DNA of 64,000 bases from Candidatus Marinacidobacterium sp. (GCA_965220965.1 OZ244852.1:824621-888620); one strand, 5' to 3'; counted from the stretch's first letter, positions 41,529-64,000 are shown. The notes: generated by a model from the letters alone, not told the origin. Translations and numbers: made by a program.

Positions 41529-42394
41529 GACCCCGGCTCGTCGTCGTCGCGGTGGTCGCCGCCCTGCTCGTCGGCGCCGGCGGTCTGGTCGCGGCGGGCT
41601 GGGCCACCGCCGGCTGGAGCGTGGCCGGGCTGCCCGGAATCGGGGTGGCCGGATCCGGCGCCGACGAGCTGACCGCGACCTTCCGCCCCGATCCGAACGC
41701 TGTAGAGCTGCCTCTCGACTACGAGAACCGGCGCTACGACGATGAGTTCACCTTCGCGCGCATCCGGTTCGAGCCGCCCGCCTACCGCCGGGGCCGGTTC
41801 TACTGGGGCCTCGACCTGAAGTGGAACCACGACTACCCCTGGGGCGAGGAGAACCTTGCGCTCATCCTCTCCGAGTACACGTCGATCCAGGTGAAGCAGG
41901 GCGTGGGGGATATCTGGTCCCTCAACGAGCCCGAACTCTTCCGCCGTCCCTTCGCCTACCTCTGCGAGGTGGGGTTCTGGCATCCGAGCCCGCAGGAGGC
42001 CGAGAACCTGCGGGCCTGGCTCCTCAAGGGGGGCTTCCTCGTCGTGGACGACTTCTTCGAGCCGTTCGCGCTCGGGAACTTTCTCGAGCAGATGGAGCTG
42101 GTTCTGCCCGGCTACGATGCGGTGAGGCTGGACGTGACCCATCCGGTCTTCGACTCCTTCTTCCACATCGAGACCCTCGATTTCGAGCACCCGGGGCTGC
42201 CCCACCTCGTTCCCGAGTACTACGGTTTCTTCGAGGACAACGATCCGACCCGGCGACTCATGCTGATCGCCAACTACAACCACGACATCGGCGACTACTG
42301 GGAGCACTCGGGGAGCGACTTCTGGCCGGTCGCGCTGACGAACGAGGCGTTCAAGTTCGGTGTCAACTACGTCATCTACGGGATGACGCACTGA
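41525..42394 (+). CDS. DUF4159 domain protein (copy 2)
   Basis: ATGA overlap with the upstream gene. WNHDYPWGEENL...FAYLCEVGFWHPSPQEAENLRAWLLKGGFLVVDDFF...ANYNHDIGDYWEH...GVNYVIYGMTH parallels 34507..35403. Confidence 0.7.
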   Translation: MRPRLVVVAVVAALLVGAGGLVAAGWATAGWSVAGLPGIGVAGSGADELTATFRPDPNAVELPLDYENRRYDDEFTFARIRFEPPAYRRGRFYWGLDLKWNHDYPWGEENLALILSEYTSIQVKQGVGDIWSLNEPELFRRPFAYLCEVGFWHPSPQEAENLRAWLLKGGFLVVDDFFEPFALGNFLEQMELVLPGYDAVRLDVTHPVFDSFFHIETLDFEHPGLPHLVPEYYGFFEDNDPTRRLMLIANYNHDIGDYWEHSGSDFWPVALTNEAFKFGVNYVIYGMTH

Positions 42395-42424
42395 CGGGCC
42401 CTGAGCCCGGACAAGGAGATCTCC

Positions 42425-43516
42425 TTGACTGAAGACGCAAGGGAAGCCGGCGGCGCCGCGCTCGCCGCCGCCCCCGACGAGACCGCGATCGAGGCTCCCG
42501 CCGGGGGGGCCCTCACCGTGTCCGACGCCGATATCGCCGGACAACTGCGGGACGCCACCGAGCGGATCACCGCCGAGATCGGCAAGCGGATCATCGGCCA
42601 GGAGACAGCGCTCGAGCAGGTCCTCATCAGCCTCTTCGTCGGGGGCAACAGCATCATCACCGGCGTTCCCGGCCTCGCCAAGACGCTCATCGTGCAGACG
42701 CTCTCCGAGGTGCTGTCGCTCGATTTCCGGCGCATCCAGTTCACCCCGGACCTGATGCCCTCGGACATCACCGGCACCGACATCATCCAGGAGAACCCCG
42801 AGACCGGGAAGCGGAACCTGGTCTTCGTGAAGGGCCCGGTCTTCTCGAACATCGTGCTGGCGGACGAAATCAACCGGACGCCTCCGAAGACGCAGTCGGC
42901 GCTCCTGGAGGCGATGCAGGAGCACCAGGTCACGGTGCAGGGCCGGACCTACCCGCTCCCCGAGCCCTACTTCGTCTTCGCCACGCAGAACCCCATCGAG
43001 CTCGAGGGGACCTACCCGCTCCCCGAGGCCCAGCTCGACCGTTTCCTGTTCAACATCATCATCGACTACCTGCCGGTGGAGCAGGAACGCGAGGTCGTGC
43101 GCGAGACGACCTCGGACGAGACCGCCGAGCTCCGGCAGGTCCTCTCCGGCGAGCAGATCGTCGAGTTCCAGCATCTGGTCCGCCGGGTGCCGGTGACCGA
43201 TGCGGTGCTGGCCTACGCGGTGGATCTGGCGCGGCGCACCCGGCCCGGATCGTCGGCGGCGCCGGCGTTCATCCGCGAGCAGGTGGAGTACGGCGCGAGC
43301 GTCCGGGCGGCCCAGTTCGCCATCCTCGCCGGGAAGGCGCGCGCGCTCATGCGGGGCCGTCATCACGTGGCGGTCGAGGACATCCGCGCGCTCGCCGCGC
43401 CCATCTTCCGCCACCGCATCCTGCCCAGCTTCCAGGCGCGGGCCGAGAAGATCGACTCCGAGGCGATCATCGCCCGCGTTCTCGAGGAGACGCCGCTCCC
43501 GGCGTCCCGGATGTAG
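42425..43516 (+). CDS. moxR: MoxR-family AAA+ ATPase
   Basis: TTG start preceded by AAGGAG (42411-42416). IIGQETALEQVLISLFVGGNSIITGVPGLAKTL (Walker A), VLADEINRTPPKTQSALLEAMQE (Walker B/sensor), FVFATQNPIELEGTYPLPEAQLDRF. Confidence 0.95.
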   Translation: MTEDAREAGGAALAAAPDETAIEAPAGGALTVSDADIAGQLRDATERITAEIGKRIIGQETALEQVLISLFVGGNSIITGVPGLAKTLIVQTLSEVLSLDFRRIQFTPDLMPSDITGTDIIQENPETGKRNLVFVKGPVFSNIVLADEINRTPPKTQSALLEAMQEHQVTVQGRTYPLPEPYFVFATQNPIELEGTYPLPEAQLDRFLFNIIIDYLPVEQEREVVRETTSDETAELRQVLSGEQIVEFQHLVRRVPVTDAVLAYAVDLARRTRPGSSAAPAFIREQVEYGASVRAAQFAILAGKARALMRGRHHVAVEDIRALAAPIFRHRILPSFQARAEKIDSEAIIARVLEETPLPASRM

Positions 43517-43568
43517 GAATCGGGCTTGAACTCCAGCGCTCGTCGGCGCGCGGTATCCGCGAGGAACG

Positions 43569-44522
43569 ATGGATAGCGCCCGGTTCGTGGACCCGGTCGC
43601 GCTCGCGCGGATCGGCAACCTGTCGCTGGTGGCCCGGATGGTCGTCCAGGGGTTCATCAGCGGGCTTCACCGCTCCTCGGTTCTGGGCCGCTCGATCGAC
43701 TTCGCCGAGCACCGGCCCTACATGCCGGGGGACGACATCCGCCGCCTCGACTGGCGGCTGTTCGCACGCTCCGACCGGTTCCACGTGAAGGAGTTCGAGG
43801 CGGACACCAACGCCAACTTCGTGGTGGCGCTCGACGCTTCGCGCTCGATGGACTACGGCCTCGCCGGCGCCAGAAAACTCGACTACGCCCGGATGCTGGC
43901 GGGCAGCCTGACGGCCTTCTCCCGCTCGCAGCGCGACCGGGTGGGCCTCGGGGTGTTCGACGACGACCTGCTCGAGTTCGTCCCGCCGTCGGCCCGCCAT
44001 CTGGACACCGTGCTCGAGCATCTGGCGCGCGCGGAGCCTCCCCCGGGCGCCGCCTCGGGCGGGGAGGGGTCGCGGCTCTCCCGGCCGCTCCGGAGCCTGG
44101 GGGCCGCGCTCGGCCGGCGAGGCCTGGTGGCGGTCGTCTCTGACCTCTACGAGTCGCCGGAGGACATCCTCACCGCGTTCGACGCGCTGCGGGCCACCGG
44201 CCACGACCTTATGGTCTTCCACGTCCTCGACCCCTCCGAGCTGGACCTCGATCTGAGCGGAACCCCCGGCTTCGAGGAGTCGGGCGCGCGGTTCCAGGAT
44301 CTGGAGTCCGGCGCGGTGCTCGACCTGTCCCCCTCGAAAGCGCGCGCCGCCTATCGGTCCGCGATGGAGGAGCACATCGCCGAGTTGCGCGCCGGCTTCG
44401 GCCGCGCCGGCGTGGACTACATCCTGACGGACACTTCGGTCCCGCTCGACTTCGTGCTGTTCCGCTATCTCGTCGAGCGCGAGAACCGGATCGGCGCCCG
44501 GAGAGGGGCCCAGCGGCAGTGA
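43569..44522 (+). CDS. DUF58 protein (MoxR-associated, VWA-like)
   Basis: GLHRSSVLGRSIDFAEHRPYMPGDDIRRLDWRLFARSDRFHVKEFEADTN is the DUF58 signature. It sits in the canonical position after moxR. Confidence 0.9.
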   Translation: MDSARFVDPVALARIGNLSLVARMVVQGFISGLHRSSVLGRSIDFAEHRPYMPGDDIRRLDWRLFARSDRFHVKEFEADTNANFVVALDASRSMDYGLAGARKLDYARMLAGSLTAFSRSQRDRVGLGVFDDDLLEFVPPSARHLDTVLEHLARAEPPPGAASGGEGSRLSRPLRSLGAALGRRGLVAVVSDLYESPEDILTAFDALRATGHDLMVFHVLDPSELDLDLSGTPGFEESGARFQDLESGAVLDLSPSKARAAYRSAMEEHIAELRAGFGRAGVDYILTDTSVPLDFVLFRYLVERENRIGARRGAQRQ

Positions 44523-46594
44523 GTTTCCTCGCCCCCCTCTTCCTGCTCGGCGGCCTGCTCGTCGCGCTCCCCATCGTCCTGCATCTGACGCGGCGGCGCC
44601 GCGAGCCGATCCCGTTCCCGTCGTTCCTGCTGCTCCGCGCCACGGCGGCCACCGCCCGCTGGAAGCGCCGGCGGTTCCGCCACATCCCGCTCCTGATCCT
44701 GCGCTGCCTCGCGCTCGCGCTCATCGCCGCCGCCTTCGCCCGGCCGCTGATGGAGCGGGACGAGACGGATCCGGCCAGCGCCGCGGCGCCGCTGGACCTC
44801 GCAGTGCTGCTCGACCGCTCGGCGAGCATGGCGATCCCGGGGCGCATGGACGCGGCGCGGGCGGCCGCGCTCGAGGAGCTCGGCGCGCTCGGCCGCGGAG
44901 ACCGCGCGCTCGTCGCCTCCTTCGCCGACCGGGCGGTGGGGCTCTCGGAACTCACCGAGGACATCGACGCGCTCCGCGCTGAAGTCGACCGGATCGTCCC
45001 CGGCGACGGCGCCACCCGGTTCTCGGCGGCGCTCGGCCTCGCCGGAAGACTGCTCCCCGCAACCCGCGGCCGGCGGCGGGAGGTCGTGTTGATTTCCGAC
45101 CTGCAGCGCACCGGTTTCGAGGACGGGATCCCGTCCCCGAGCCTGCCGCCGGGCGTCGGGCTTCGCGTCCGCCGGGTCGGAGGCGAGCCGCCGCGCAACC
45201 TCGGGGTTCGCGAGGTCCAGGTCGCGGCCGACGGCGGAGATCGGATCGCGGTCACCGCCTCGCTCCAGGTCGCCGGCGTCGCACCGGAGGAGACGGTCGA
45301 GGCCACGGCGGAGCTTTGGGTCGCGGGCGAGGCGGTGGACCGGCAGACGGTTTCGCTCGCCGGGGACCGCGCCGCGAGCGTGCGGTTTGCCTCGACCCCC
45401 GCGCCCACCGAGGCGCGCGAGGCCGAGGTCCGGCTGCCCGAAGATGCGTTCGCCGCGGACAACCGGTTGCGGTTCGTGATCCCGAGCGAGGCCGCGCTTC
45501 CGGTCACCGATCTCGGGGACGCGGACGCGCTCCACGTCCGTGAGGCGCTCGCGGTCGGGGTCGCTCCGGCCTTCGCGGTGTCCTCGGGACCGCTTCGGGG
45601 CGAGTCGGCGGTGGGCGCGGCGCTCGGCGGCGCCCGCGCGGCGCTCCTTCGGGATCCGGGTCGGCTGGACACCGGGGGCGCCCGCGCCGTGGCCGATTTC
45701 GTGCGCGGCGGCGGCGGAGTCGTGGCGGCGGTCGGATCCCGACGCATCCCGGATGCGGTGTGGGCGGAGCTCGAGGGGGTGTTTCCGGCGGCGGTCGGCG
45801 GCGTCGTGGACCGGGAGCCCGCCGGGCGCATCGGCGAGCTGAGCCGGCACCCGGTGTTCGCTCCGTTCACCGGGGAAGCGGCGTCTTCGCTGTCCCGCTC
45901 CGCGGTGTACCGCTACCGGGCGCTCTCCGAGCTGGCGGAAGGCGTCGAGACGCTGGCCCGCTTCGACGACGGCCGCCCGGCGCTTCTTTCGCGACGGACC
46001 GGAGAGGGGGTCGTCCTGCTGTTCGCCTCCTCGCTGGACGCCCGCTGGAACGATCTGCCGCGCCGACCGGCGTTCGTGCCGTTCCTGCACCGGATGGTGG
46101 AAGTGGCGGCCCGCCACGAGCGCCTCCCGGTGGCCTATCGGGTGGGCGACAGCGTCGAGCCGGTCCGGGCGTTCGGGTTGTCCGCGCCCGACGGCGACGC
46201 CGAGGTCCTCGTCGAGTCCCCCTCCGGCGAACGGGTCGTGATCCCGGACGCCGGCGCGCTGCGGATGGAGGAGGCCGGGTTCTTCCGCGGCCGGCGGACC
46301 GGCGCGGTGGGCGGAGCCCCGATTGCGGCGAACCCCGCTCCCGGGGAGGCCGACCTGCGGGTCTTCGACGTCGAGGAGGTTCGCCTCGGGGCGGCGGCGC
46401 GGGGGGTGGAGGCTGGTCCGGAGGGCGAGGCGGACGCCGCCGCGGACGCCGGATTCCTCCCGGGGACTCCGCTCTGGTGGGCGCTCCTCGTGGTCCTCGG
46501 CTTGCTCCTCGTGGTCGAGGTCATGACCGCGAACCGTTTCACGCCGTCGCGCGCCCGCGCCGGGCGCGATCCCGGCTCCTATACTGTGGCCTGA
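44519..46594 (+). CDS. BatA_N (TIGR02226 double-TM N-terminal) + VWA domain membrane protein
   Basis: GTGA overlap with DUF58. MSFLAPLFLLGGLLVALPIVLHLTRRRREPIPFPSFLLL is the aerotolerance-regulator N-terminal domain. LAVLLDRSASM is a VWA MIDAS motif. C-terminal TM helix. Confidence 0.8.
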   Translation: MSFLAPLFLLGGLLVALPIVLHLTRRRREPIPFPSFLLLRATAATARWKRRRFRHIPLLILRCLALALIAAAFARPLMERDETDPASAAAPLDLAVLLDRSASMAIPGRMDAARAAALEELGALGRGDRALVASFADRAVGLSELTEDIDALRAEVDRIVPGDGATRFSAALGLAGRLLPATRGRRREVVLISDLQRTGFEDGIPSPSLPPGVGLRVRRVGGEPPRNLGVREVQVAADGGDRIAVTASLQVAGVAPEETVEATAELWVAGEAVDRQTVSLAGDRAASVRFASTPAPTEAREAEVRLPEDAFAADNRLRFVIPSEAALPVTDLGDADALHVREALAVGVAPAFAVSSGPLRGESAVGAALGGARAALLRDPGRLDTGGARAVADFVRGGGGVVAAVGSRRIPDAVWAELEGVFPAAVGGVVDREPAGRIGELSRHPVFAPFTGEAASSLSRSAVYRYRALSELAEGVETLARFDDGRPALLSRRTGEGVVLLFASSLDARWNDLPRRPAFVPFLHRMVEVAARHERLPVAYRVGDSVEPVRAFGLSAPDGDAEVLVESPSGERVVIPDAGALRMEEAGFFRGRRTGAVGGAPIAANPAPGEADLRVFDVEEVRLGAAARGVEAGPEGEADAAADAGFLPGTPLWWALLVVLGLLLVVEVMTANRFTPSRARAGRDPGSYTVA

Positions 46595-46615
46595 CCGGCA
46601 AGGAGCGCCCCTTCC

Positions 46616-49600
46616 ATGGAGACCCTCGGGCTCGACCCCACTCCCCGCAGTCCTTTCGAACCGACGCCCGGGGAGCGGTATGAGGAGCTGATCCGGGTCA
46701 TCCGGCGCGTGCGCTCGCGCTGGCGCACCCGGCGGCTGCTCCTCGGCGGCGCGGCGCTCGCGGTGGCGGGGGTGGTGCTGGTCGGCGGTTCGTCGGCCAT
46801 CCTCGAGGCGGCGCGCTATGCGCCGTGGGCGGTCCGGGGGCTCGCGGCGCTGACCTGGACGCTGCTCGCCATCGCGGTCTGGCGGTTCGTTGCGAGGCCG
46901 CTCCGCTCCCGGGTGAGCGACCGGCGGGTCGCGCTCTACGTCGAGGAGCACGACCCGACGCTTCGCGAGGCGGTCATCAGCGGCGTCGAGCTGGGGAAGG
47001 AGCTCGACCACAAGGGAGGGGCGAGGCCGGGGTTCTCCCCGGAGCTGACCCGGCTGGTCGTCGAGGAGGCGATCCGGCGCTGTGAGGAGATGGACGCCGG
47101 CCGGAACATCGAGACCGGCGGCCTCCGCCGCGCCGCGGGCGCGCTCGCCACCGCGGTGGGCGTGGCCTTCGTGGCCTCCATCCTCGCGCCGTCCGACCTC
47201 TGGCGCGGGGTTTCGCTGCTGGTCGCTCCCTGGGGGGACATCGACGACCGGAACCCCTACCGGGTTCTCGTCGAGCCGGGCGATGCGGCGATCGCGCGGG
47301 GATCCGACATGTGGATCTCGGCGACCCTCGAGGGCTTCGACACCGAGAGGGTGGATCTCCACCTCCAGGCGGCGGACGGGGAAGGCTGGGAGGTCCTCGG
47401 GATGACTCCGGACCCCGAAGCGGGCGGGTTCCGCCATCTGCTGCTTGGCGTGCCGGAGGCCACCGATTACTTCGTCGACGCCGATGGCGTCCGGTCCCCG
47501 ACCTTCCGGATCGAGGTTGAGGACGCGCCCTACGTGGCGCGCATCGGGGTGCGCTACGAGTATCCGGCGCACACCGGGCTGACGCCGCGCGAGGTCGAAG
47601 AGGGCGGCGACCTGGTCGCGGTCGGGGGCACCCGGGTCACGCTCCACGTGGAGTCGACGATCCCGGCGTCCAGCGGCGTGCTGCGGCTGGATCCGGGTGA
47701 AGAAGAGCTGCCGCTCGTTCCGGTGGCGCCCGACGAAGAGGCCGCGCCGGCCGGAAGCCGTCCGGCGATGACCGCCGAACTCGTGCTGCGCGAGAGCGGC
47801 GCCTACCGGATCTCGCTCGCCGGCCCGGATGGCGCGCTCCGGACCGCCTCGCGCGACTACCGCATCGAGGTGCTGGAGGATCTCCCCCCGATCGTCCGGT
47901 TCCTGCGGCCCGGAAGGGATCTGACCTCGAGTCCGGTGGAGGAGGTCTTCACCGAGGTCGCCGCCGAGGACGACTTCGCGCTGGACCGGGTCGAGATCCG
48001 GCTCTCGGTCAACGGGGGAGAGGAGAGCGGGTTCGTGCTGGCTTCGGGCGGCGCCCGTTCCGAAGTCCAGTCGGGGCACACCATCTTCCTCGAGGAGCAC
48101 GACCTCGTTCCCGGGGATCTCGTCTCGTATTACGCGCTGGCGCGCGACGGGGCCGGCGCCGAGTCCTCGACCGACATGTATTTCGTGGCGGTGCGGCCGT
48201 TCGACCGGACCTACCGCCAGGCGGATGCGATGCCCGGCGGTGGGGGCGGCGCCGGTGGCGGGGAAGGGCTCGACGGGACGCTCACCCTGCGGCAGCGGCA
48301 GATCGTGGTGGCGACCTTCAAGGTGCTGCGCGACCGCGAGCGGATGACCGACGCGGCGGTTTCGGAGACGGTCGCCACGCTCGGGCTCGCCCAGGGCCGG
48401 CTCCGCGAGCAGGTCGGCACGCTGAACCGGCGGCTCCAGAACCGCGGCATCGGCCTCTCGCCGGAGTTCGGCGAGATCGTCCAGCACCTCGACGCCGGGC
48501 TCATCGAGATGACAGCCGCCGAGGAGTCCCTGGTCGGCGGCGACCCGGAGGCCGCGCTCCCGAGGGAACAGAAGGCCTTGACCCACCTGCAGCGCGCCGA
48601 CGCAGTGTTCCGGGATGTCCAGGTCGCCTTCAACCAGGGCGGCGGTGGAGGCGGTGGCGGCGGCGCTCCGCCCCAGGCGGAGGATCTGGCCGATCTCTTC
48701 GAGCTCGAGATGGACAAGCTCCGGAACCAGTACGAGACGGTGGAGCAGTCCCAGCGGGCTTCGTCCGACAACGAGGTGGACGAGATCCTCGAACGGCTCG
48801 CGGAGCTGGCGCGCCGTCAGGAGCAGGAGAACGAGCGGCTCCGCCGGGGCATGCAGGCGCCTCCCGGCGCGGGCGGCGGCAACGGGCAGGATCAGCTCGC
48901 CGCCGAGACCGAGGACATGGCCCGCCGGCTGGAGCGCCTCGCCCGTGAGCGGTCCCGTCCGGACCTCGCGGCCGTCTCCCGGCGCCTGCGGGAAGCGGCC
49001 TCGGAGATGCGGGCGGCGAACAGCCGGAACCCCGGCGAGGGCCTCGAGAGCGGCATGTCGGCCGCCAGTTCGCTGCGCGGCGCGCGGCGCGATCTGGACC
49101 GCGGGCGGCGGGATCGTCTCGCTCGCGACGTGGAGTCCGCCGAGGAGGAGGCCAAGCGCCTCCGGTCGGCGCAGGACCGGATCCGTTCGGCGGTGCAGGA
49201 TCTCGAGGGCGAGCGGACCCGCCAGGCCGTCGACGCGATCTCGGAGCAGAAGGAAGAGCTTGTGGAGCGCGTCCAGGATCTGGAGCGGCGCCTCGACGAG
49301 GTCAGCCGCGACTGGAGCGGCGACGAGCCCGAGGCCGCGCGCGCGGTGGGCGCCGCCGCCGACGGCATCCGCGACCGGAAACTGAAGGAGAAGATCCACT
49401 ACTCCCGGGGGGTGGCCGCCCAGCGCTCGACCGACTACGCCGACCAGTTCGAGGAGATGATCGGCCGCGACCTCGAGGCGCTCGAGGAAGATCTCGCCTC
49501 CGCGCGCCGCGCGGTCGAGGGCTCGGACCGGGCGGAGCAGGATTCGGTGCTCGAGCGCGCCGAGTCGCTGGTGCGCGGTCTGGAGGCCATGCGGAACCGG

Positions 49601-50161
49601 CTCGCCGAACGCAAGGAGCCGGGACGCGAGAGCCGGGAGGGGCAGGAGGGCTCGTCCGGGCAGCAGGGTGAGGCGCAATCCGGAGAGGGCCAATCTGGCG
49701 AGGGGCAGTTCGGGGAAGGACAGGCCGGCGAGGGGCAGCCCGGGGAAGCGGCCTCCCGGCAGGCCGATGGGCGCGGTGGAGGCGGCGGCCCCGGCGGATC
49801 CCGCAACGAAGTCCGCCAGCTCCGGAGCGAACTGGACCGCCGGGTCCGCGACGCCGAGGCGCTCCGGCGCGAGATGACCGGCATCGGCGCCTCCGGGGAG
49901 TTCGGCGCCGAGCGGCTGGATCAGGTCGCCGCCGCGCTCAGGGGACTGAACCCGGAGCGGCTCATCGGCGACCCCCGGGGCATGGAGATCCTCGAGGCCG
50001 AAGTCCTCGACACCCTGCGCGAGCTCGAGTTCGACCTGAGGCGGGCGCTCACCGGCGGCGAGGTCGCCGATGTCCTCACCGGGGACGCCGGCCGCGCCCC
50101 CGAGGCCTACCGCGAGATGGTCGAGGAGTACTTCCGCAACCTGAGCCGCAACCCGGGGTAG
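46616..50161 (+). CDS. Very large membrane-anchored coiled-coil protein (DUF4175-like) with low-complexity Gly and GEGQx repeats
   Basis: 1181 aa. Two N-terminal TM helices after RRVRSRWRTRRLLLGGAALAVAG, then VALYVEEHDPTLREAVISGVEL (as in DUF4175 proteins of MoxR/Bat clusters). Long Arg/Glu-rich helical C-half. The family name is from memory only. Confidence 0.6.
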   Translation: METLGLDPTPRSPFEPTPGERYEELIRVIRRVRSRWRTRRLLLGGAALAVAGVVLVGGSSAILEAARYAPWAVRGLAALTWTLLAIAVWRFVARPLRSRVSDRRVALYVEEHDPTLREAVISGVELGKELDHKGGARPGFSPELTRLVVEEAIRRCEEMDAGRNIETGGLRRAAGALATAVGVAFVASILAPSDLWRGVSLLVAPWGDIDDRNPYRVLVEPGDAAIARGSDMWISATLEGFDTERVDLHLQAADGEGWEVLGMTPDPEAGGFRHLLLGVPEATDYFVDADGVRSPTFRIEVEDAPYVARIGVRYEYPAHTGLTPREVEEGGDLVAVGGTRVTLHVESTIPASSGVLRLDPGEEELPLVPVAPDEEAAPAGSRPAMTAELVLRESGAYRISLAGPDGALRTASRDYRIEVLEDLPPIVRFLRPGRDLTSSPVEEVFTEVAAEDDFALDRVEIRLSVNGGEESGFVLASGGARSEVQSGHTIFLEEHDLVPGDLVSYYALARDGAGAESSTDMYFVAVRPFDRTYRQADAMPGGGGGAGGGEGLDGTLTLRQRQIVVATFKVLRDRERMTDAAVSETVATLGLAQGRLREQVGTLNRRLQNRGIGLSPEFGEIVQHLDAGLIEMTAAEESLVGGDPEAALPREQKALTHLQRADAVFRDVQVAFNQGGGGGGGGGAPPQAEDLADLFELEMDKLRNQYETVEQSQRASSDNEVDEILERLAELARRQEQENERLRRGMQAPPGAGGGNGQDQLAAETEDMARRLERLARERSRPDLAAVSRRLREAASEMRAANSRNPGEGLESGMSAASSLRGARRDLDRGRRDRLARDVESAEEEAKRLRSAQDRIRSAVQDLEGERTRQAVDAISEQKEELVERVQDLERRLDEVSRDWSGDEPEAARAVGAAADGIRDRKLKEKIHYSRGVAAQRSTDYADQFEEMIGRDLEALEEDLASARRAVEGSDRAEQDSVLERAESLVRGLEAMRNRLAERKEPGRESREGQEGSSGQQGEAQSGEGQSGEGQFGEGQAGEGQPGEAASRQADGRGGGGGPGGSRNEVRQLRSELDRRVRDAEALRREMTGIGASGEFGAERLDQVAAALRGLNPERLIGDPRGMEILEAEVLDTLRELEFDLRRALTGGEVADVLTGDAGRAPEAYREMVEEYFRNLSRNPG
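49667..49741 (+). repeat. In-frame 15-nt tandem repeat encoding (G-E-G/A-Q-x)x5
   Basis: ggtgaggcgcaatcc ggagagggccaatct ggcgaggggcagttc ggggaaggacaggcc ggcgaggggcagccc = GEAQS GEGQS GEGQF GEGQA GEGQP inside the DUF4175-like CDS. Confidence 0.8.
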
Positions 50162-50440: not shown

Positions 50441-52132
50441 GTGATTCGCGGAGTGTGGAGCGACTTCGGTCGGTGGAAGGATGGTTGGGATGAAATCCAG
50501 ACAGTGGGCGGCGGTGGACAGGGGAACGGTTACCGTGCGCGTCGCCAGTCAGATGGCCGGGAGGCCTTCGTCAAGGTGATCAAGTCCAAGCGCGACGCCG
50601 AGCGTCGGAGACGCTTCTTTCGCGAGGCGACAGCCTATGACACGGTTCGCAGCAGTGGCGTTCCGCGACTGATCGAGAGCAACGCCCATCTCCACGAAGC
50701 CGCAGAGATCGAGCCGTATATCGCGACAGAGTTCATCGAGGGGCCAACGTTGAGAATCTGGCGGGACGGACGGCATGAGGTTGAACTCGCCACCGCCCTA
50801 AGATTGGTCCGGTCTCTCCTCGCGGCGATCGGCGACTGTCACCACGGCGGTGTCGTTCACCGCGACATCAAGCCAGACAACATCATCCTGAGAGGTGGGA
50901 ATCCGTCCCAGCCTGTGCTTCTGGATTTTGGCCTGAGCTTCAAGGTGACGCAGACCAGTGAGGCCGTGACCGAAGACGGGCAGGAAATCGGCAATCGTTT
51001 TCTGCGCTTGCATGAGCTCTCCGCCGGTAGTCAACTTAAGCAGGATCCCCGGTCGGACTTGTCGTTTGCTGGTGGAATCCTGTTCTACTCCCTGACGGGC
51101 AGGAATCCCGACATCCCAGAGGATGCGGAGGGTCGTCTCCCTCACCAACGGAGGGATGTGCGTTCGCAGCTTCGACACATCGCCGGTGAGCGGTTGGAGC
51201 GGTTGCTGTCCATATTCGACAGCGCCTTCGCACCAAGAATCCACGACCGGTTCGTGAACGTCGAGGCAATGGTTGCAAGTCTGGAGAACCTCACGGAATC
51301 GCGGCGTGTTGTGGTGGGCACGTTGGATCATGATCGAGACGCCATCCGTGAGGCGTTGAACACTGCGTCGGCACAGCGGTCATCAGAGAGTCTTGACAGA
51401 CTCACGCACGCTCTCGAAGAGCTGCATCGAGTTGACGATGAAGCAGCGACGTGGTTGGACTGTCCTCTAACTCTGACACGAGGCGGACGGCACGTAGATG
51501 CCGACTTGGGAAGAAACACTGTGTCCTGGCGTAAGCGAGGAATGACCGACGATGTGTTACGAGTACAGCAGGAGGTCCGGGAGGTAGGCGGTGAACTCGT
51601 CATCAAGCTGTCGGGCGAAGCGGTCTGGCGGACGGCGGTGAACGCACCGACGTATGGAGAGTGCTTTGCCGAGAGAATTCGGAGATGGCTGGTCGGGAGA
51701 CTCCGCGAGGCTATCGCGAATCCGGAGGCGCTGCCGCCCGAGGCCAGCTATTTCCAGGAAGAGCCGCCGCTCGGGTCGCTAACGGAAGCGCAGGAGCGAG
51801 CGCGCCGAGAGGACCGCCACGTTCTGGCGTTCGTGTATGACCCGGCGCAGAAGGAGCGCGGCGAACGCGGCAAATTGGAGTGGTGTCTGAGCAACTTCCT
51901 TGAGAACCGCAGGACGCGCGAAACGCTCCGCGCAGCGTTTGTTCTAGCGCTCGTGCCACTGTCTCAAGTAAGTGCGGTCACAGACGAGCTCAGTGGCGAG
52001 TCGATGGAGACTTCACGCTGGGTCGTCTTTGATGCGGACCTCGCACCCAAGCGGCACGAAGTCATCTATGCGAACCCGCAGATGGCGGAGAGTCTCGCCG
52101 GTGAGCTGTCCGACGAGTTCGGTCGCCGATAG
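50441..52132 (+). CDS. Ser/Thr protein kinase domain fused to an uncharacterised ~290-aa C-terminal region
   Basis: GTG start. G-loop GGGGQGNGY, EAFVKVIK (VAIK-like Lys), HRDIKPDNIIL (catalytic loop), DFGLSF (DFG). The C-terminal half has no motif I recognise. The gene is visibly lower in GC than its flanks. Confidence 0.8.
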   Translation: MIRGVWSDFGRWKDGWDEIQTVGGGGQGNGYRARRQSDGREAFVKVIKSKRDAERRRRFFREATAYDTVRSSGVPRLIESNAHLHEAAEIEPYIATEFIEGPTLRIWRDGRHEVELATALRLVRSLLAAIGDCHHGGVVHRDIKPDNIILRGGNPSQPVLLDFGLSFKVTQTSEAVTEDGQEIGNRFLRLHELSAGSQLKQDPRSDLSFAGGILFYSLTGRNPDIPEDAEGRLPHQRRDVRSQLRHIAGERLERLLSIFDSAFAPRIHDRFVNVEAMVASLENLTESRRVVVGTLDHDRDAIREALNTASAQRSSESLDRLTHALEELHRVDDEAATWLDCPLTLTRGGRHVDADLGRNTVSWRKRGMTDDVLRVQQEVREVGGELVIKLSGEAVWRTAVNAPTYGECFAERIRRWLVGRLREAIANPEALPPEASYFQEEPPLGSLTEAQERARREDRHVLAFVYDPAQKERGERGKLEWCLSNFLENRRTRETLRAAFVLALVPLSQVSAVTDELSGESMETSRWVVFDADLAPKRHEVIYANPQMAESLAGELSDEFGRR

Positions 52133-58481: not shown

Positions 58482-61400
58482 CTATCCGCGGGATAGCGCC
58501 TGTTCGATCTCATTCAGGGCGAATTTGCGGTTCAGGTGTGGGTGCAGCCACTGATTCCGATAACTCCTGAGGCACCCATAGCAGCTCGCGTCGCAACCGC
58601 AGTCGCCGCGCACACGCGTTCGCGCAAGTTCCAGCACGAGGCGGAAACTCTCCCTGTTGGTGAGTTGGCCTACGAGTCCAGCGCCGCCAGGAACATCGTC
58701 GTAGAGAACCACTCCGTCCACGGTAAGGGTGACGTTCAGGTCGCGTTCGGGGACGGCAACGGCATCGGCAGCTCCATGGAGAAGCGCGTACCCGAGCGAA
58801 TACCGAACCCACTTCTGGCGCCCCGGCAGCTCAACCTTGACCACATCTGTGACAAGCTCGTGACCCAACGCGTAGCTGGAGAAGGTACCTCGGCAGGGAC
58901 GCCCGTCCGCTGTCTTGTGGCCGCGCGCCCGTGGGTTCGCGTCGTGTAGTCCGCAGTCCTCGCACAGCAAGAAGTTGCGCTGACCCTGACCCTCACAGAG
59001 AACCACTAACCTGCCTGGCAGAGCCTCTGCGACATCGAGCCCGAAGAGTCTCTTCTTGTGGGCCTTGCGCGCCCCAGCGGAATACCCCTGGAAGAACGGC
59101 TTCGTCGTATACTGACGGCGCGGTCGGCGCACCGGAGGGCGTGGGTCGGTCTGGAGGTCGGTAGTAAAGCCCCAACGTGGGACGAGATAGCGACCTGAGT
59201 ACTGTGCACCTTCCTCCTTCTCCGCGTCATTTGAGGATTCGAAGGCGCCCTCCTCGTTCCAGAAGTACCAGCGGACGGTGGGAGCCTGCCCCTCGACCCT
59301 CCGAATACCCACAGACTTCCACTCCAGCTTGTCGGCGACTACGCTGCTCCCAGGCGCGTATTCGGCAAGCGCGAGTGAGAGATCACGGTCGAGCTCTATG
59401 TTCTGGCCATTCTTGGTCGCTCCCGTTTGCAGCTCGACCACATCCACCGGAAATCCGTATTTTGGGATGATGGCGTGTCGCGCCAGAAACGAAATCGCCA
59501 TCTCCCGCTCCATCGCGTTCAATCGGTCCTCCAACCGATAGCGCCTCCTTCGTTCAGTGCGAGTGGCATTCAGATCCGCCAGGATCCGTTCGATCTGAAG
59601 ATACTCGGCGCACCGATCGGCGACGGCGCGGGCGAGTCTGCTCTCGCTCCCGGTAAGCCGTCGAACCCATTTCTGTCCATCGACCCCGACGCTCTCCCGC
59701 AGCGTCGCCGGAACGACGTCGTGCAGGACTCGCGGCAGCGCGTCGTCGTTGCGGCAGAACTCGCCGAAAGCATCACACACATCGGGGTGTCGCCAGTCCT
59801 CGCCAATGAAATCCTTGACTCGTCCGGCGCGAATACGATGCGCCGGCTGCCGGAAGAAGTGTGATAGGGCGACCGCGGTCATGTGCCTTTGGACGATCTG
59901 AGGATTTGTCAGGCGAAGGATCGGCGGTCGGACCCGACCAGAGATCATCTCCTGCTGATGTCGGAAGTAGTGGAGGTCATGGGAGTTGCGGCGACAGTAG
60001 GTGACGGCAAGACCTGCCTTCCCCCGCCGGCCGGCGCGGCCGACTCGTTGTGTGTAGTTGAACGGTTCGGGTGGCACGTTACGAAGAAACGTCAGGCGAA
60101 GATCACCGAGGTCGACACCGACTTCGAACGTAGTGGACGAACTGAGCAGGTGCACCCGATCCCGCTGAAAATCGCGCTGGACGCTGCGCGCTTCCTCCGG
60201 AGTCAACTGCGCTGTGTGTTCGGCCGTTCTGAAGTCTGCTGGAAGGTCCGATGCGAGGTAGAGGCGTCGGTAGTGGTTGTCCTCGTGCGTGCTCTTCACC
60301 CGACCGAGTCGTCCCGTGCAGCGAGGACGGGGACAGAGGCCGCGAAGGGCTATGGCAGTGACCCGGTCGCACCTACGACACCGCCAGAGGTCGGATGACG
60401 AGGCCGGACGGACACGGAGCCACTCGGCGCGCAGCCGGAAGCCGTTAGTCCTGCGATCGATGGACAGGAGAGCGGCGCTGGACGAGCGTCGCGACTGAGC
60501 GACGAGGTGATCCCAGACACGAACCATCACATCTTGGGCGGCGAACACGGGGTCCGTCTCACCATTGACTAGTTTGGGAAGATAGTCGCGAACAAGGCCG
60601 CCCTGCGGTGAGCCCCACTGGCGCAGATGACGGCGTCCGTGCGGACGATCTTGGCTGAAGGCGAGTTGGGGCCTCTCTGGCTTTATGACGGACCACGTGG
60701 GCAGATCCGGATCGGTGGAGGGCAGCTCCACCGCGTCGTTTCTGAGGAACTCGGCGAGCAGCAATTGCAGGAGCGCACTGGCCTCCGCCGGGTTCAACCG
60801 CCAGGGAGTCTCCTGGAACACTGGCGGGAGATTCATGCCCGGAGGCAGTGCGACATGCCAGCGGCAGAGGCCGACCCCCGCCAGCGACAGCCGCGTGTCA
60901 TCGGTCACGGCTTCACGAAGCACTGCCGCATAGGCATCTCTGTAGCGCTGTGCTCCAGTCTCCGACGGTGCGTGAACCCCCAGCTCCGACCGGACTCTCT
61001 CGAGTCTCTGCGCGAGATCGGCCACGGACAACTCGCAGTGACTCGCGCCACGCGGTGAAGCCTTCTGTCGAAGGGCGCGGAGCAACAGGTTGCGCGTGAG
61101 CAGAGTCCGGTAGGAGTCCTCCGCATACCAAGCAAAGAAAGCTGCGTCCTGTCGGCTATCCGCGAAGGCAAGGATCTTCTTCTCATCCTCGGGAAGAAAC
61201 CGGTGCATGGCCGTAGCCAGAACGGCGTTGGGGGCGTCGGCGCCGTGGACGATCGCCTGAACGGGATCGCCAACGCCACCTCGGCTGTAGCTACAGACCG
61301 CGCACCTCTTCAGTTGATCCCGGTACTCCGGTTGCTGTCGGTTCTCACTCCGTTCAACACGGATCGCCGCTCCACAGCGGCACGTCAGCTCGTCGCTCAG

Positions 61401-62738
61401 CGCACCGCAGATACGGCAGAGCAGAAGGGAACCCTCCTCGGCGGGCAGGTAGAACTCGACCCCGAACTCCTCGCGCGACGGATCCCGGCAGGCTTCCAGG
61501 AGGAACCCTCCGGTACGGCGGCCAACGTAGTAGTGCTGGCCACACTCGCGGCACAGCGCTATCTCGATATAGGCCGACTTGCCAGCCTCATCCCCGACAT
61601 GACCGCGGTTCAGCGTGACCCGGTCCTGCCCATGATGGTGATGCAGGAAAGCGCCTTCAAGCGCCCTTGCAAACACGTGGTAGCGACGTACGTGCGCACT
61701 CGTCCTGGCCCGTGTAGTGTCCTCCTGACCGAAGATCACGCACTCGGGAGCGAAGGGCTCACCGAACAGGGCACTCGCAAATCGAGCCACGGATGCCCGA
61801 GCATCGGCATCGTGTGTCGACGCGATGGTGGCGCTCGTGGCGACGCATCGAAATGACCCCGACCGGCCGCCTCGCCGCAGTCGATTCGTGAGACGGCGCA
61901 GCAGCATCGCCATCTCGATCCCCCTTGCACCGCGATACATGTGCGCCTCGTCGAGGACCAGAAACCGCCAGTGAGCGGCCCGGCCGGCATCGAACAAAGG
62001 GCTGTCATCCGGCCGGAGGAGCAGATGCTCGAGCATCGAGTAGTTGGTAAACAGAAGGTGCGGCGGCCGCGCCCGCATATCCTCGCGGAATACTGTTTCG
62101 CCGGGGAGCGCGCTCTCAGCGCGCGCGCGACCGTGCCGGCGTCGGTCTCTGATGTTCTCCGGTGTCTGCCCGATGTACTGTCCAAAGGAGAATCGGAAGT
62201 CGGAGCGGTCCGCAGCGAGGTTGCCGCAGAGCGCGCCGATCCGCTCGCGCTGGTCGTTGACCAGGGCGTTCATGGGATAGAGAACGAGGGCGCGGACGCC
62301 GGGGTCGCCCAGCGTGCCGGCCAGGTGTTCTCCGTAGAGGGAGAACAGAATGGGATAAAGGAAGCACTCGGTCTTCCCGCTGGCTGTGCCGCTCGCCACG
62401 GCGATGTTGGACTGTGCGAACGCGCTCTGTCGAATGGCCTCCTCCTGATGTGCATAGAGCGCGCCGGAGTGCAGAGCAGGTAAGAGCGCGCCTGCCCGGC
62501 CAGGAAACGCCGCCTCGGCGAGAGCGGGAGCCTCGACCCCGAGCCGAAAATACCGGCCGTATTCCGGAACAGGTTCGGTGACCAGTGTGCCCTCGGCTTC
62601 GAGCGCGGTGCGGAAGGACTCGCGTAGTTGGGGATCTCGGAAATGGAAAGATGTTGTGAGGTACCTGAGGTAGCTCGAACGCAGACGTCGGACCCACCCG
62701 GCGATCTCCGCGTCGGAATGGGGTTGGGTGACGCTCAT
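58482..62738 (-). CDS. Large SF2 DEAD/DEAH-box helicase with C-terminal DUF1998/MZB zinc-binding domain (YprA-MrfA / DrmAB / DruE-like)
   Basis: ATG at 62738. Motif I VASGTASGKT (62370-62399), motif II DEAH (61941-61952), TSATI, motif VI QRVGRAGRRG. C-terminal GDCGCDASCYGCLRSYRNQ (about 58567-58611) is the DUF1998 4-Cys cluster. Extra CxxC pairs lie between the RecA lobes. The first 126 codons of the ORF-track entry overlap the upstream gene out of frame. Confidence 0.85.
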   Translation of the reverse strand: MSVTQPHSDAEIAGWVRRLRSSYLRYLTTSFHFRDPQLRESFRTALEAEGTLVTEPVPEYGRYFRLGVEAPALAEAAFPGRAGALLPALHSGALYAHQEEAIRQSAFAQSNIAVASGTASGKTECFLYPILFSLYGEHLAGTLGDPGVRALVLYPMNALVNDQRERIGALCGNLAADRSDFRFSFGQYIGQTPENIRDRRRHGRARAESALPGETVFREDMRARPPHLLFTNYSMLEHLLLRPDDSPLFDAGRAAHWRFLVLDEAHMYRGARGIEMAMLLRRLTNRLRRGGRSGSFRCVATSATIASTHDADARASVARFASALFGEPFAPECVIFGQEDTTRARTSAHVRRYHVFARALEGAFLHHHHGQDRVTLNRGHVGDEAGKSAYIEIALCRECGQHYYVGRRTGGFLLEACRDPSREEFGVEFYLPAEEGSLLLCRICGALSDELTCRCGAAIRVERSENRQQPEYRDQLKRCAVCSYSRGGVGDPVQAIVHGADAPNAVLATAMHRFLPEDEKKILAFADSRQDAAFFAWYAEDSYRTLLTRNLLLRALRQKASPRGASHCELSVADLAQRLERVRSELGVHAPSETGAQRYRDAYAAVLREAVTDDTRLSLAGVGLCRWHVALPPGMNLPPVFQETPWRLNPAEASALLQLLLAEFLRNDAVELPSTDPDLPTWSVIKPERPQLAFSQDRPHGRRHLRQWGSPQGGLVRDYLPKLVNGETDPVFAAQDVMVRVWDHLVAQSRRSSSAALLSIDRRTNGFRLRAEWLRVRPASSSDLWRCRRCDRVTAIALRGLCPRPRCTGRLGRVKSTHEDNHYRRLYLASDLPADFRTAEHTAQLTPEEARSVQRDFQRDRVHLLSSSTTFEVGVDLGDLRLTFLRNVPPEPFNYTQRVGRAGRRGKAGLAVTYCRRNSHDLHYFRHQQEMISGRVRPPILRLTNPQIVQRHMTAVALSHFFRQPAHRIRAGRVKDFIGEDWRHPDVCDAFGEFCRNDDALPRVLHDVVPATLRESVGVDGQKWVRRLTGSESRLARAVADRCAEYLQIERILADLNATRTERRRRYRLEDRLNAMEREMAISFLARHAIIPKYGFPVDVVELQTGATKNGQNIELDRDLSLALAEYAPGSSVVADKLEWKSVGIRRVEGQAPTVRWYFWNEEGAFESSNDAEKEEGAQYSGRYLVPRWGFTTDLQTDPRPPVRRPRRQYTTKPFFQGYSAGARKAHKKRLFGLDVAEALPGRLVVLCEGQGQRNFLLCEDCGLHDANPRARGHKTADGRPCRGTFSSYALGHELVTDVVKVELPGRQKWVRYSLGYALLHGAADAVAVPERDLNVTLTVDGVVLYDDVPGGAGLVGQLTNRESFRLVLELARTRVRGDCGCDASCYGCLRSYRNQWLHPHLNRKFALNEIEQALSRG

Positions 62739-62787
62739 CGATCCGTGGCGCGGAGCATCCGATCGCAGACCCGGGTCCAGGCGTGCC

Positions 62788-64000
62788 TCATCGGGACGTG
62801 AGGGCCCGAAGGGCCGCGACGGCGGCGTTGACGACGTGGGCGCGGGACCCGATGGAACGAACGCGAATGCTTCGGATGCCTGCGGTCTCCAAGAGCGCCC
62901 GTAGACGGCCACGGGCGTGAACGCCCGAGTCGGCGCTCGCGGGCCGCAGCAGAAGGCGCGAGGAGCCATAGGCGCCAACCGTGGCGCGCGGAATGGTGTT
63001 GTGGGAGATCGGGACGACGAACAGGGCGCGTCGAGCCCGATGCTCGGCCCGGGCACATGCTCTTCGAGGTGTGCTCTCGCATGCGCGTCCGACGCCGAGT
63101 CGGCCGTTGCGATCACCCACGGCTACGAGCGCCACGAATCGTCGGTGTCGAGGCGCTACGGCCCGCCGTGAGAGCGGTCGGAGCGTGAGAAGGCGAGGGG
63201 TCAGCGCCGGTGGAGATTGGGAGGGGGACGGGTGGGAAGGAAGTTCGAGGAGGAGTGCCGGCAGAGTGTGCGAGCCAGCCCGTAGCCTGAGTTCCCCGGA
63301 CGCTGGCTCGGATTGGACAGAGAGGAGGTCGGCGAAAGAGCCCAGCGGAATCGAGACGGCCGTCTTGTGCGGAAACTGGGCAGCAAGGCCACTGTCGGCC
63401 TCGTGGCGGTAGCGTCCGGGCTGACCGTCAGCGAAGGCCGCCTCGATCGTCCGCTCCGTGGGTGGCGCCAGAACCTCCAGTGCGGCGTGTCGCCGATAGG
63501 TTCGGCGAAGCGGTCGTCGCTCCCAGCAGGAGTCACCCGCCATCCGCCACCAGAGGCGCGGCAGATCCAGGACAATCGGGAGGCTGTCGTCGCCGTCGCG
63601 CAGTTCAAGGCGCACCCGATCGGTCTTGGGGGAGTACGGCACCCGCGCCTCTCGAGTGCGAACGGCCACATCGCGCGTGCCGGTGTTGAGCTGCAGCGAC
63701 CGACCATGGCTGTCTTCGATCGTGATGTAGTCCTCGTCGCGGTCGTCTGGCAAGAGGAGTCGGAGACCCTCGAATGGCAGTCCGTTCACCAGAATCCTCT
63801 TGAGGCCTGGCCAGTAGCGGAACGTGGTCGTGTCGGCGAGATGAGTGTGGCCGCTCTGATACGTGCGAAGAAAGAACTCGCCGCGCCTGTTCCCAATGCG
63901 CACGGGTGTTGGCTGCTCTGTGAGTTCGAAGTTCTTGCCCTTCCACGGTTCGTCGGCTGGCCCCGCGTGGCGCCCGGCGGCGCGGGGGTGCTCCTCTCCG
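62788..64000 (-). CDS. Unknown protein (5' end beyond window) with C-terminal ribosomal-protein-S5-homology domain
   Basis: The frame stays open to nt 64000 (no stop upstream of the GTG at 63903). The last ~135 aa (62791..63195) align end-to-end with bacterial S5: RRFVALVAVGDRNGRLGVGRA.., NTIPRATVGAYGSSRLLLRPASADSGVHARGRLRALLETAGIRSI, IGSRAHVVNAAVAALRAL. The N-terminal >=260 aa are unrecognised. Confidence 0.75.
   Translation of the reverse strand, partial: GEEHPRAAGRHAGPADEPWKGKNFELTEQPTPVRIGNRRGEFFLRTYQSGHTHLADTTTFRYWPGLKRILVNGLPFEGLRLLLPDDRDEDYITIEDSHGRSLQLNTGTRDVAVRTREARVPYSPKTDRVRLELRDGDDSLPIVLDLPRLWWRMAGDSCWERRPLRRTYRRHAALEVLAPPTERTIEAAFADGQPGRYRHEADSGLAAQFPHKTAVSIPLGSFADLLSVQSEPASGELRLRAGSHTLPALLLELPSHPSPSQSPPALTPRLLTLRPLSRRAVAPRHRRFVALVAVGDRNGRLGVGRACESTPRRACARAEHRARRALFVVPISHNTIPRATVGAYGSSRLLLRPASADSGVHARGRLRALLETAGIRSIRVRSIGSRAHVVNAAVAALRALTSR

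Follow-up and report, generated by a model that had tools for sequence, protein, structure and literature searches.

A compact DruE-like helicase and a partner with an exchangeable, uS5-derived tail form a putative Druantia III-like gene pair in Candidatus Marinacidobacterium

A compact DruE-like helicase gene directly downstream of a large co-directional gene

The stretch of DNA analysed here, called the window throughout, comprises 64,000 nucleotides from Candidatus Marinacidobacterium sp. (GCA_965220965.1 OZ244852.1:824621-888620). Two co-directional genes on the minus strand at the end of the window are the subject of this study: one encodes a large helicase related to DruE of the Druantia anti-phage systems and the other, directly upstream, encodes a partner protein with a C-terminal module derived from ribosomal protein uS5 (Table 1). 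The partner gene, which starts outside the window, was read at full length on the source contig (ENA ERZ26695579, 50 kb), on which we examined a 24-kb locus, L001; related loci and proteins are designated by L and P numbers where they have to be told apart.

A first-pass annotation of the window, made from its sequence alone, had described the helicase as a 1418-residue superfamily 2 (SF2) protein with a DUF1998 module, and this description held. The open reading frame (ORF) is translated from an ATG start codon into an intact SF2 helicase of that length, Pfam recognises DEAD, Helicase_C and MZB domains in it, and the motifs that had been quoted were all found: motif I (GTASGKT, residues 117-123), motif II (DEAH, residues 263-266), motif III (SAT, residues 302-304), motif VI (QRVGRAGRRG, residues 897-906) and a CGCDASCYGC cluster (residues 1380-1389) that lies inside the MZB/DUF1998 domain. 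The identical protein was obtained when genes were called independently on the source contig, and an exact-match look-up found the same protein on a 2.88-Mb contig too. A longer frame starting at a GTG codon (to 63116) was rejected since it overlaps the partner gene, since the contig gene caller picked the ATG and since its 126 extra residues resemble the translation of non-coding DNA with a high guanine + cytosine (GC) content.

According to the Pfam domain limits, the two RecA lobes of the helicase are separated by a cysteine-rich insert of ~500 residues, which follows RecA1 and contains, at the sequence level, three invariant Cys4 sets. Cysteine pairs are located at residues 396/399, 441/444, 453/455, 479/482, 787/790, 802/807 and 1259/1262. 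When the helicase was aligned with eight homologues of 49-58% identity, none of these cysteines varied, so that the interpretation as several inserted zinc ribbons, proposed in the first pass along with a long inter-RecA insertion, is more than a chance reading. In DruE, a BrxA-like helical domain and a zinc-binding module make up the long insertion that follows RecA1, and such a zinc-binding module was described for Druantia III DruE (PMC12458937 supplement). The Cys4 ribbons are a family-wide feature, and the unusual part of the pair is the partner.

The first-pass annotation had considered DruE, DrmA+DrmB and MrfA as the nearest known architectures, and our comparisons single out DruE among them. 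Seven PADLOC DruE models matched the helicase with E-values from 7e-144 to 2e-100, covering its N- and C-terminal halves, the best two being DruE1 (7e-144) and DruE3 (4e-135), while the PADLOC models of DpdJ, SngC, DrmA and BrxH gave E-values of 1e-20 or weaker (DrmA, 1e-17). The top matches in the PDB were two DruE structures (9tu7, 2.7e-65; 9wae, 1.2e-49). MrfA/YprA (PDB 6znp) matched at 1.4e-18 in RecA1 only, and the NCBIfam model TIGR03817 reached 115 bits for a cut-off of 874.

To compare the helicase with E. coli DruE, a full E. coli Druantia III locus was reached via yjiT of strain K-12. The two proteins are collinear over RecA1 (40% identity), RecA2 and MZB (25% identity), but the alignment ends at residue 1729 of the 2114 residues of E. 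coli DruE, showing that the ~385 additional C-terminal residues of the latter, which carry its PLD nuclease domains, are absent from the window's helicase. This protein stops 28 residues past MZB, with no PLD domain detected in the Pfam scan, which accounts for its being shorter than DruE, as the first pass had remarked. In K-12 itself, the locus (L092:6415-10856, yjiT-yjiV) is a decayed Druantia III system beside mcrBC, with a 505-residue yjiT fragment and a yjiV pseudogene, and strain MS 198-1 (L093) has an intact 1096-residue DruH and a 2114-residue DruE at the same site as this remnant.

The search for relatives of the helicase gave more than 6500, and in the 120 best of them lengths lie within 1395-1435 residues and identities to it within 48-58%. 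In a neighbour-joining tree of 54 helicases, the window's protein falls into a compact clade of 1400-1580 residues, in which it is the basal member of one subclade; this clade stands apart from the 1550-1700-residue actinobacterial, Firmicutes and archaeal forms and from the forms of 2000-2100 residues. Nuclease-free compact DruE proteins were already named Druantia III-B or "type III-like" in papers from 2025-26 (PMC12458937; 10.64898/2026.05.13.724758), so the helicase does not define a new system: judged by its matches and its position in the tree, it is an ordinary member of a large, known branch of compact DruE proteins.

Table 1. Features of the helicase and partner genes in the window
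Feature	Position	Strand	Evidence
Compact DruE-like helicase gene, YprA/MrfA family, without nuclease domain	58482..62738	-	ORF, contig gene call, Pfam, PADLOC, PDB
C-terminal zinc module of the helicase: CEDCG (aa 1259-1263), then MZB/DUF1998 (aa 1316-1390)	58569..58964	-	Pfam MZB 4.8e-10
RecA2 lobe core (aa 834-906), motif VI	60021..60239	-	Pfam Helicase_C 2.6e-10
Third Cys4 ribbon, directly before RecA2 (aa 787-807)	60318..60380	-	C787/C790/C802/C807
Cys-rich zinc-ribbon cluster within the inter-RecA insert (aa 396-485)	61284..61553	-	C396/C399/C441/C444 + C453/C455/C479/C482
RecA1 lobe (aa 96-308), motifs I/II/III	61815..62453	-	Pfam DEAD 1.6e-17
Gap of 49 nt, partner stop codon to helicase ATG	62739..62787	-	Coordinates
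3' part (last 404 codons) of the DruH-like partner gene	62788..64000	-	Frame open to window end
uS5-derived C-terminal module of the partner (aa 711-849)	62791..63207	-	Pfam, TIGR01021, PDB, Foldseek
In-window part (aa 446-700) of the all-beta Ig-like repeat core of the partner	63238..64000	-	

A large partner family with exchangeable C-terminal tails

The short gap between the partner and helicase genes suggests that they form one operon, and their counterparts in related loci overlap or have 13 nt between them. The full partner gene (L001:7402-9951) encodes 849 residues. An AlphaFold2 model based on 93 family sequences predicts an N-terminal helix (residues 3-17), disorder up to about residue 225 and then a confident all-beta region of immunoglobulin (Ig)-like character (residues 258-700; predicted local distance difference test, pLDDT, ~90); the disordered linker is acidic and 240 residues long. 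Across the family, the N-terminal part (in the window's partner, residues 1-257, L001:7402-8170) displays a conserved amphipathic helix with a tryptophan, then a P/E/D/S-rich disordered linker of 150-250 residues and a basic PRxIGGRRG-like motif that precedes the core. This helix may serve for docking or for membrane binding.

Word-index searches found only 3 and then 11 homologues of the partner, and it was an exhaustive profile search that revealed the size of its family: 9407 cluster representatives were found at E≤0.001 and 1023 at E≤1e-30. The family is thus large, and it is without annotation. A large co-directional ORF lies directly upstream of the helicase gene in nearly all of ~70 loci, in agreement with the Druantia III-like layout recognised in the first pass; the partner core is present upstream of all close helicases, and its pairing with a helicase of ~1400 residues was seen in every close locus with called genes (L002-L005, L086-L091 and L094). 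The stop-to-stop frames that precede the helicases in two loci (L011:1785-6011 and L012:1938-6011) hold sigma-70 regions 2, 3 and 4 before the partner core, probably corresponding to a neighbouring sigma-factor gene that was read through by the crude ORF call.

The presence of an S5 domain in the partner, another element of the first-pass annotation, was verified by several methods. The last 140 residues correspond to ribosomal protein uS5, complete with both S5 domains in the same order as in rpsE products but degenerate: Pfam detects Ribosomal_S5 (1.6e-09) and S5_C (2.3e-11), the comparison with PDB uS5 chains gives 2e-22 over S5 residues 12-146 and Foldseek assigns a probability of 1.0 to uS5. 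Unlike a genuine rpsE product, this module is fused behind 700 unrelated residues and is encoded outside a ribosomal-protein operon, the neighbouring genes in the 24-kb locus not being ribosomal-protein genes; it reaches only 84-86 bits with the rpsE equivalog model TIGR01021 (cut-off 164), and its conserved KVVKGG loop is replaced. The module is also only 31-35% identical to other uS5 tails, indicating weak constraint. A less divergent case is found in L002, where the uS5 module matches B. subtilis uS5 over its whole length with 197 bits. Of nine loci with helicases of 56% or higher identity to that of the window, eight have a uS5 partner and the ninth, L087, has a bS1 partner; the loci of the subclade that carry uS5 are the window, L002/L003, L086, L088, L089, L090 and L091, the tails of L088 and L090 consisting of the S5 C-terminal domain only.

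A census of tails was made on 165 representatives and loci, out of ~1000 family clusters. The tail found in 130 of the 165 (~80%) is a segment of 60 residues that was recognised by comparing a tail profile with eL13. uS5 tails were found in 6 cases and other tails (RpoA N-terminal domain, TrcR, MacB_PCD, zinc ribbons and lysine/arginine (K/R)-rich stretches) in 22, whereas L087 alone carries a complete bS1, with six S1 domains and an rpsA model covered at positions 13-516 of 516.

The eL13-tail profile matches eL13 chains in the PDB (7e-14 to 4e-7) at eL13 residues ~56-120, and the archaeal L13e model matches the tail at 1.2e-12 (positions 24-74 of 83). By these profile comparisons, the tail and ribosomal protein eL13 are genuinely homologous. 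A match of the same profile to IcmE/DotG was rejected, as it is due to short GFSxxELKxAG repeats. The motif of this tail, GKGFSxGELRxAGL...IPVDxRRRxxH..NV, was seen in L005:1135-3615 (P0003), L007-L012, L016 and L053, and also in L044, L070 and L077; it occurs too on partners with unrelated cores beside helicases of ~1600 residues, including two archaeal loci.

Two further tails are copies of other components of the gene expression machinery. The partner of helicase P0010 (L087:2083-5877) combines the same Ig-like core with full bS1 (NF004952, 690 bits for a cut-off of 524), and since the helicases of L087 (bS1) and L091 (uS5) are 83.5% identical, these different tails point to a recent swap. 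The tail of P0273 (L094:265-2889, L095:152-2776) is the N-terminal (dimerisation and assembly) domain of the RNA polymerase alpha subunit (RNA_pol_A_bac, 89 bits; RNA_pol_L, 65 bits); four metagenome samples contained this protein, its gene immediately preceding that of a helicase 46% identical, over the full length, to that of the window.

Altogether, the C-terminus of the partner is an exchangeable cassette. Ribosomal proteins are unmentioned in the Druantia papers PMC12458937 (with its supplement), 10.64898/2026.05.13.724758 and 10.64898/2026.05.12.722862, and full-text searches gave nothing relevant joining DUF1998 to ribosomal protein S5 or L13e to phage defense, so that a partner with a ribosomal-protein tail cassette appears to be undescribed so far. 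The suggestion from the first pass that the locus might be a distinct or variant system therefore stands for the partner tail but not for the helicase, whose III-B branch already has its name.

Relation to known systems and possible role of the pair

The organisation of the window's pair is that of Druantia III-B, or "type III-like", systems: the same two genes are co-directional, with the partner first; exactly one extra large protein is encoded, directly upstream, in both; and the helicase is of the same DruE family, with a zinc-rich insert and MZB but without PLD nuclease domains. The two differ in that III-B helicases have 1550-1700 residues, compared with ~1400 for the window's helicase, which is 27-33% identical to them and belongs to a separate clade. 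Similarly, the III-B partner has ~1100 residues, whereas members of the window's family have 600-900 and lack the N- and C-terminal regions of the actinobacterial proteins, in place of which they have the disordered linker and the ribosomal-protein tail. DruH is described as without annotated domains in the III-B papers (PMC12458937; 10.64898/2026.05.13.724758; PMC13316683). The MSMEG_1253/1254 pair of M. smegmatis, with a DruH of 1132 residues and a DruE of 1667 residues, was shown experimentally to be antiphage (PMC13316683), and published phage-protection tests cover the M. smegmatis and E. coli systems only (PMC13316683; 10.64898/2026.05.13.724758).

At the level of the partner, hhalign matched the core to the ~1100-residue partners of the ~1600-residue actinobacterial helicases (88%, E 3e-6, 341 columns, central part), although a plain HMM search found no link between the core and these proteins. 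From size and taxon only, we infer that the actinobacterial partners are orthologous to M. smegmatis DruH, in which case this one profile-profile match would remotely connect the window's partner with III-B DruH. The gene order is also the same in Druantia III-A (E. coli DruH/YjiT + DruE), and Ig-like domains are common to E. coli DruH and the window's partner (10.64898/2026.05.12.722862; PMC13192584), but E. coli DruH has neither a ribosomal-protein tail nor an eL13-like motif. In L067, a search of the DNA for E. coli DruH gave no match. In DISARM (DrmA + DrmB + DrmC + methyltransferase), helicase and DUF1998 are also present, but the two are fused in one protein in the window, and no methyltransferase, DrmC, DrmD or PLD gene was found in the 24-kb locus.

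Considering these comparisons, we propose that the locus is a two-gene, Druantia III-like (III-B-like) anti-phage module whose uS5 tail serves as an exchangeable nucleic-acid-binding module, a reading to which we give a probability of roughly 0.68. By analogy with studied DruE, which loads on 3' single-stranded DNA (ssDNA) and unwinds it in the 3'-to-5' direction, its PLD domains being dispensable in one study (10.64898/2026.05.13.724758), the compact DruE would load on 3' ssDNA that phage genomes expose during replication or recombination and, driven by ATP, unwind in the same 3'-to-5' direction. The Ig-like core of the partner may then be a fast-evolving recognition or scaffold part, while the uS5 tail, with its dsRBD-like N-terminal domain, would tether the partner to the nucleic acid on which the helicase is working. 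The tail would thereby stand in for the C-terminal site of E. coli DruH, at the interface of the C-terminal domain with Ig5, where ssDNA binds and competes with ATP (10.64898/2026.05.12.722862). Tails as diverse as eL13-like, uS5, bS1, zinc-ribbon, K/R-rich and TrcR tails fit with such a nucleic-acid-binding role. DruH was also proposed to be a sensor of late phage structural proteins with a dimer-dependent nuclease activity (PMC13192584), and in M. smegmatis the pair keeps phage DNA from circularising and replicating (PMC13316683).

Several observations weigh against this proposal. Neither the helicase nor the partner contains a recognisable nuclease. The partner and 13 relatives gave no match to the 11 PADLOC DruH models, and none of them matched the NCBIfam YjiT_fam model, while E. 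coli DruH, used as a positive control, matched both PADLOC DruH and YjiT_fam with E=0; hhalign of the partner against E. coli DruH gave only 1.5%. Thus, a sequence relationship between the partners of the window and of E. coli III-A is not detectable with these three approaches, no tool assigned the partner to a known family, and its membership of the PADLOC/NCBIfam DruH/YjiT families was rejected; it is best called DruH-like in architecture and position, as a putative family member. As for the tail, the RpoA N-terminal domain is not a nucleic-acid binder, and the uS5 modules of L002 and L086 share 84% identity, far more than their cores (51%) or helicases (69.5%), suggesting that what is needed is a native-like S5 surface and not generic binding. 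Finally, the pair is found in several related genomes at one site adjoining a beta-lactamase-family gene, a syntenic position that looks vertically inherited rather than mobile, and neither a tRNA nor an integrase was found in the 24-kb locus, leaving it without an island mark.

Since nucleic-acid binding leaves the RpoA tail and the strong conservation of uS5 unexplained, we kept two other explanations, in which the tails are integrated copies of host gene-expression proteins that serve either as baits for phage factors or as docking modules for ribosome or RNA polymerase; taken together, we regard these as unlikely. In the first of them, the uS5, bS1 and RpoA N-terminal domain tails would be integrated decoys that bait phage takeover proteins, and contact with or modification by the phage effector would activate the helicase. 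Integrated decoy domains act in this way in plant nucleotide-binding leucine-rich repeat (NLR) receptors, of which the window's system would, if this were true, be a prokaryotic counterpart. Modifying enzymes of T4 and T7 classically target S1 and RNA polymerase alpha, and several tails are complete host proteins (bS1 with 690 bits, above the cut-off; uS5 with 197 bits over its full length; the RpoA N-terminal domain). The conservation of the uS5 module above the rest of the protein is what one would expect if likeness to the host must persist, the tails swap between very close systems (L087 and L091), and DruH was proposed as a phage-protein sensor in E. coli (PMC13192584). However, ~80% of the family carries an eL13-like tail, some other tails are plain zinc ribbons or K/R-rich stretches, and the window's own uS5 copy, degenerate and at 83 bits without its KVVKGG loop, would be a poor mimic. 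To our knowledge, bacterial ribosomes lack eL13, so the eL13-like tail cannot mimic a host target in bacteria, and we know of no phage effector that targets uS5. We therefore hold this explanation to be improbable.

Less probable still is docking, according to which the ribosomal-protein or RpoA module would insert into, or bind, the ribosome or RNA polymerase, letting the pair patrol sites of coupled transcription and translation or report on, or shut down, translation. It is true that each of uS5, bS1 and the alpha N-terminal domain can assemble into the expression machinery as a subunit, that near-canonical uS5 modules are strongly constrained and that natural uS5 proteins tolerate long N-terminal extensions, with which the lengths of uS5 in the PDB agree (220 residues in M. 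tuberculosis, 308 in chloroplasts). Nevertheless, the window's uS5 module is far below the rpsE cut-off (84 versus 164 bits) and has lost a conserved loop that contacts 16S rRNA, L088 and L090 retain S5_C only, and the eL13-like tail has no known site on a bacterial ribosome. DruH by itself is toxic in M. smegmatis (PMC13316683), which would suit docking, but the studied DruE proteins act on DNA (10.64898/2026.05.13.724758).

It is very improbable that the pair is an MrfA/YprA-type housekeeping repair helicase with an accessory protein, for although the SF2 core and MZB/DUF1998 zinc domain are common to the helicase and MrfA of the MrfA/YprA-MrfB repair pair (PDB 6znp, 1.4e-18) and members of the subclade lie at a conserved chromosomal position in several genomes, the likeness to MrfA is limited to RecA1 and far below the TIGR03817 cut-off (115 versus 874 bits), the helicase has a 500-residue zinc-ribbon insert and matches DruE models over its whole length, no MrfB-like exonuclease is encoded in the 24-kb locus, the partner is not of the MrfB type, evolves fast and swaps modules as is typical of conflict genes, the GC content of the locus is below that of its surroundings, and Bell et al. 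2025 (PMC12458937) assigned Druantia helicases to the defence branch and not to the repair one.

Druantia systems are widespread and their mechanism was partly worked out in 2025-26, but the role of DruH is disputed (ssDNA binder, phage-protein sensor or nuclease). The locus described here is part of a large branch, without annotation, where the second protein has been reduced to an Ig-like scaffold and an exchangeable tail, and the natural domain-swap series formed by these tails (eL13-like, uS5, bS1, RpoA N-terminal domain and zinc ribbons) makes the function of the partner C-terminus directly testable. If the tails turned out to be baits or docking modules, the system would tie immunity by a DNA helicase to the machinery of translation and transcription. 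Current defence finders would report the helicase only, as "druantia_other" or as an orphan DruE, and miss the partner.

Genomic context of the pair

The last 6 kb of the window have a GC content of 0.64-0.67, compared with ~0.73 elsewhere, and 6 kb away from the pair, in the lowest-GC patch of the window (0.62), lies a gene for a full-length PD-T4-6 defence kinase, a Ser/Thr kinase of 563 residues (50441-52132, plus strand; PADLOC PDLC04063, 7.4e-196). Related loci adjoin PhdYeFM/PIN toxin-antitoxin pairs and type I restriction-modification genes. This context fits a defence island. On the source contig, the gene caller took only a C-terminal piece of 196 residues of the PD-T4-6 kinase (L001:20607-21197). 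A scan of the window with Rfam returned zero families, and promoter and terminator scans remained at background level.

The genes that flank the pair in related loci differ from those in the window. A divergent upstream gene of the HTH_31 type was considered as a system component and rejected, as its conservation does not extend to related loci. A Gly/Ala-rich hydrophobic protein of ~200 residues is encoded after the helicase in L086:16270-16932, L087:10368-10973, L088:10299-10907 and L089:10151-10786, the copies being 58-68% identical; it was rejected as a part of the system, since the window lacks it and has a convergent metalloprotease gene in this place, and it reflects host synteny. On the plus strand of the window (41525-50161), a run of co-directional large ORFs resembles, by eye, genes for a MoxR-type AAA ATPase, a DUF58-like protein and large transmembrane proteins. 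This run looks like ordinary housekeeping context, which would support the defence genes being insertions into a core region; its last ORF (46616-50161) gave a weak DUF4175 match on the contig copy.

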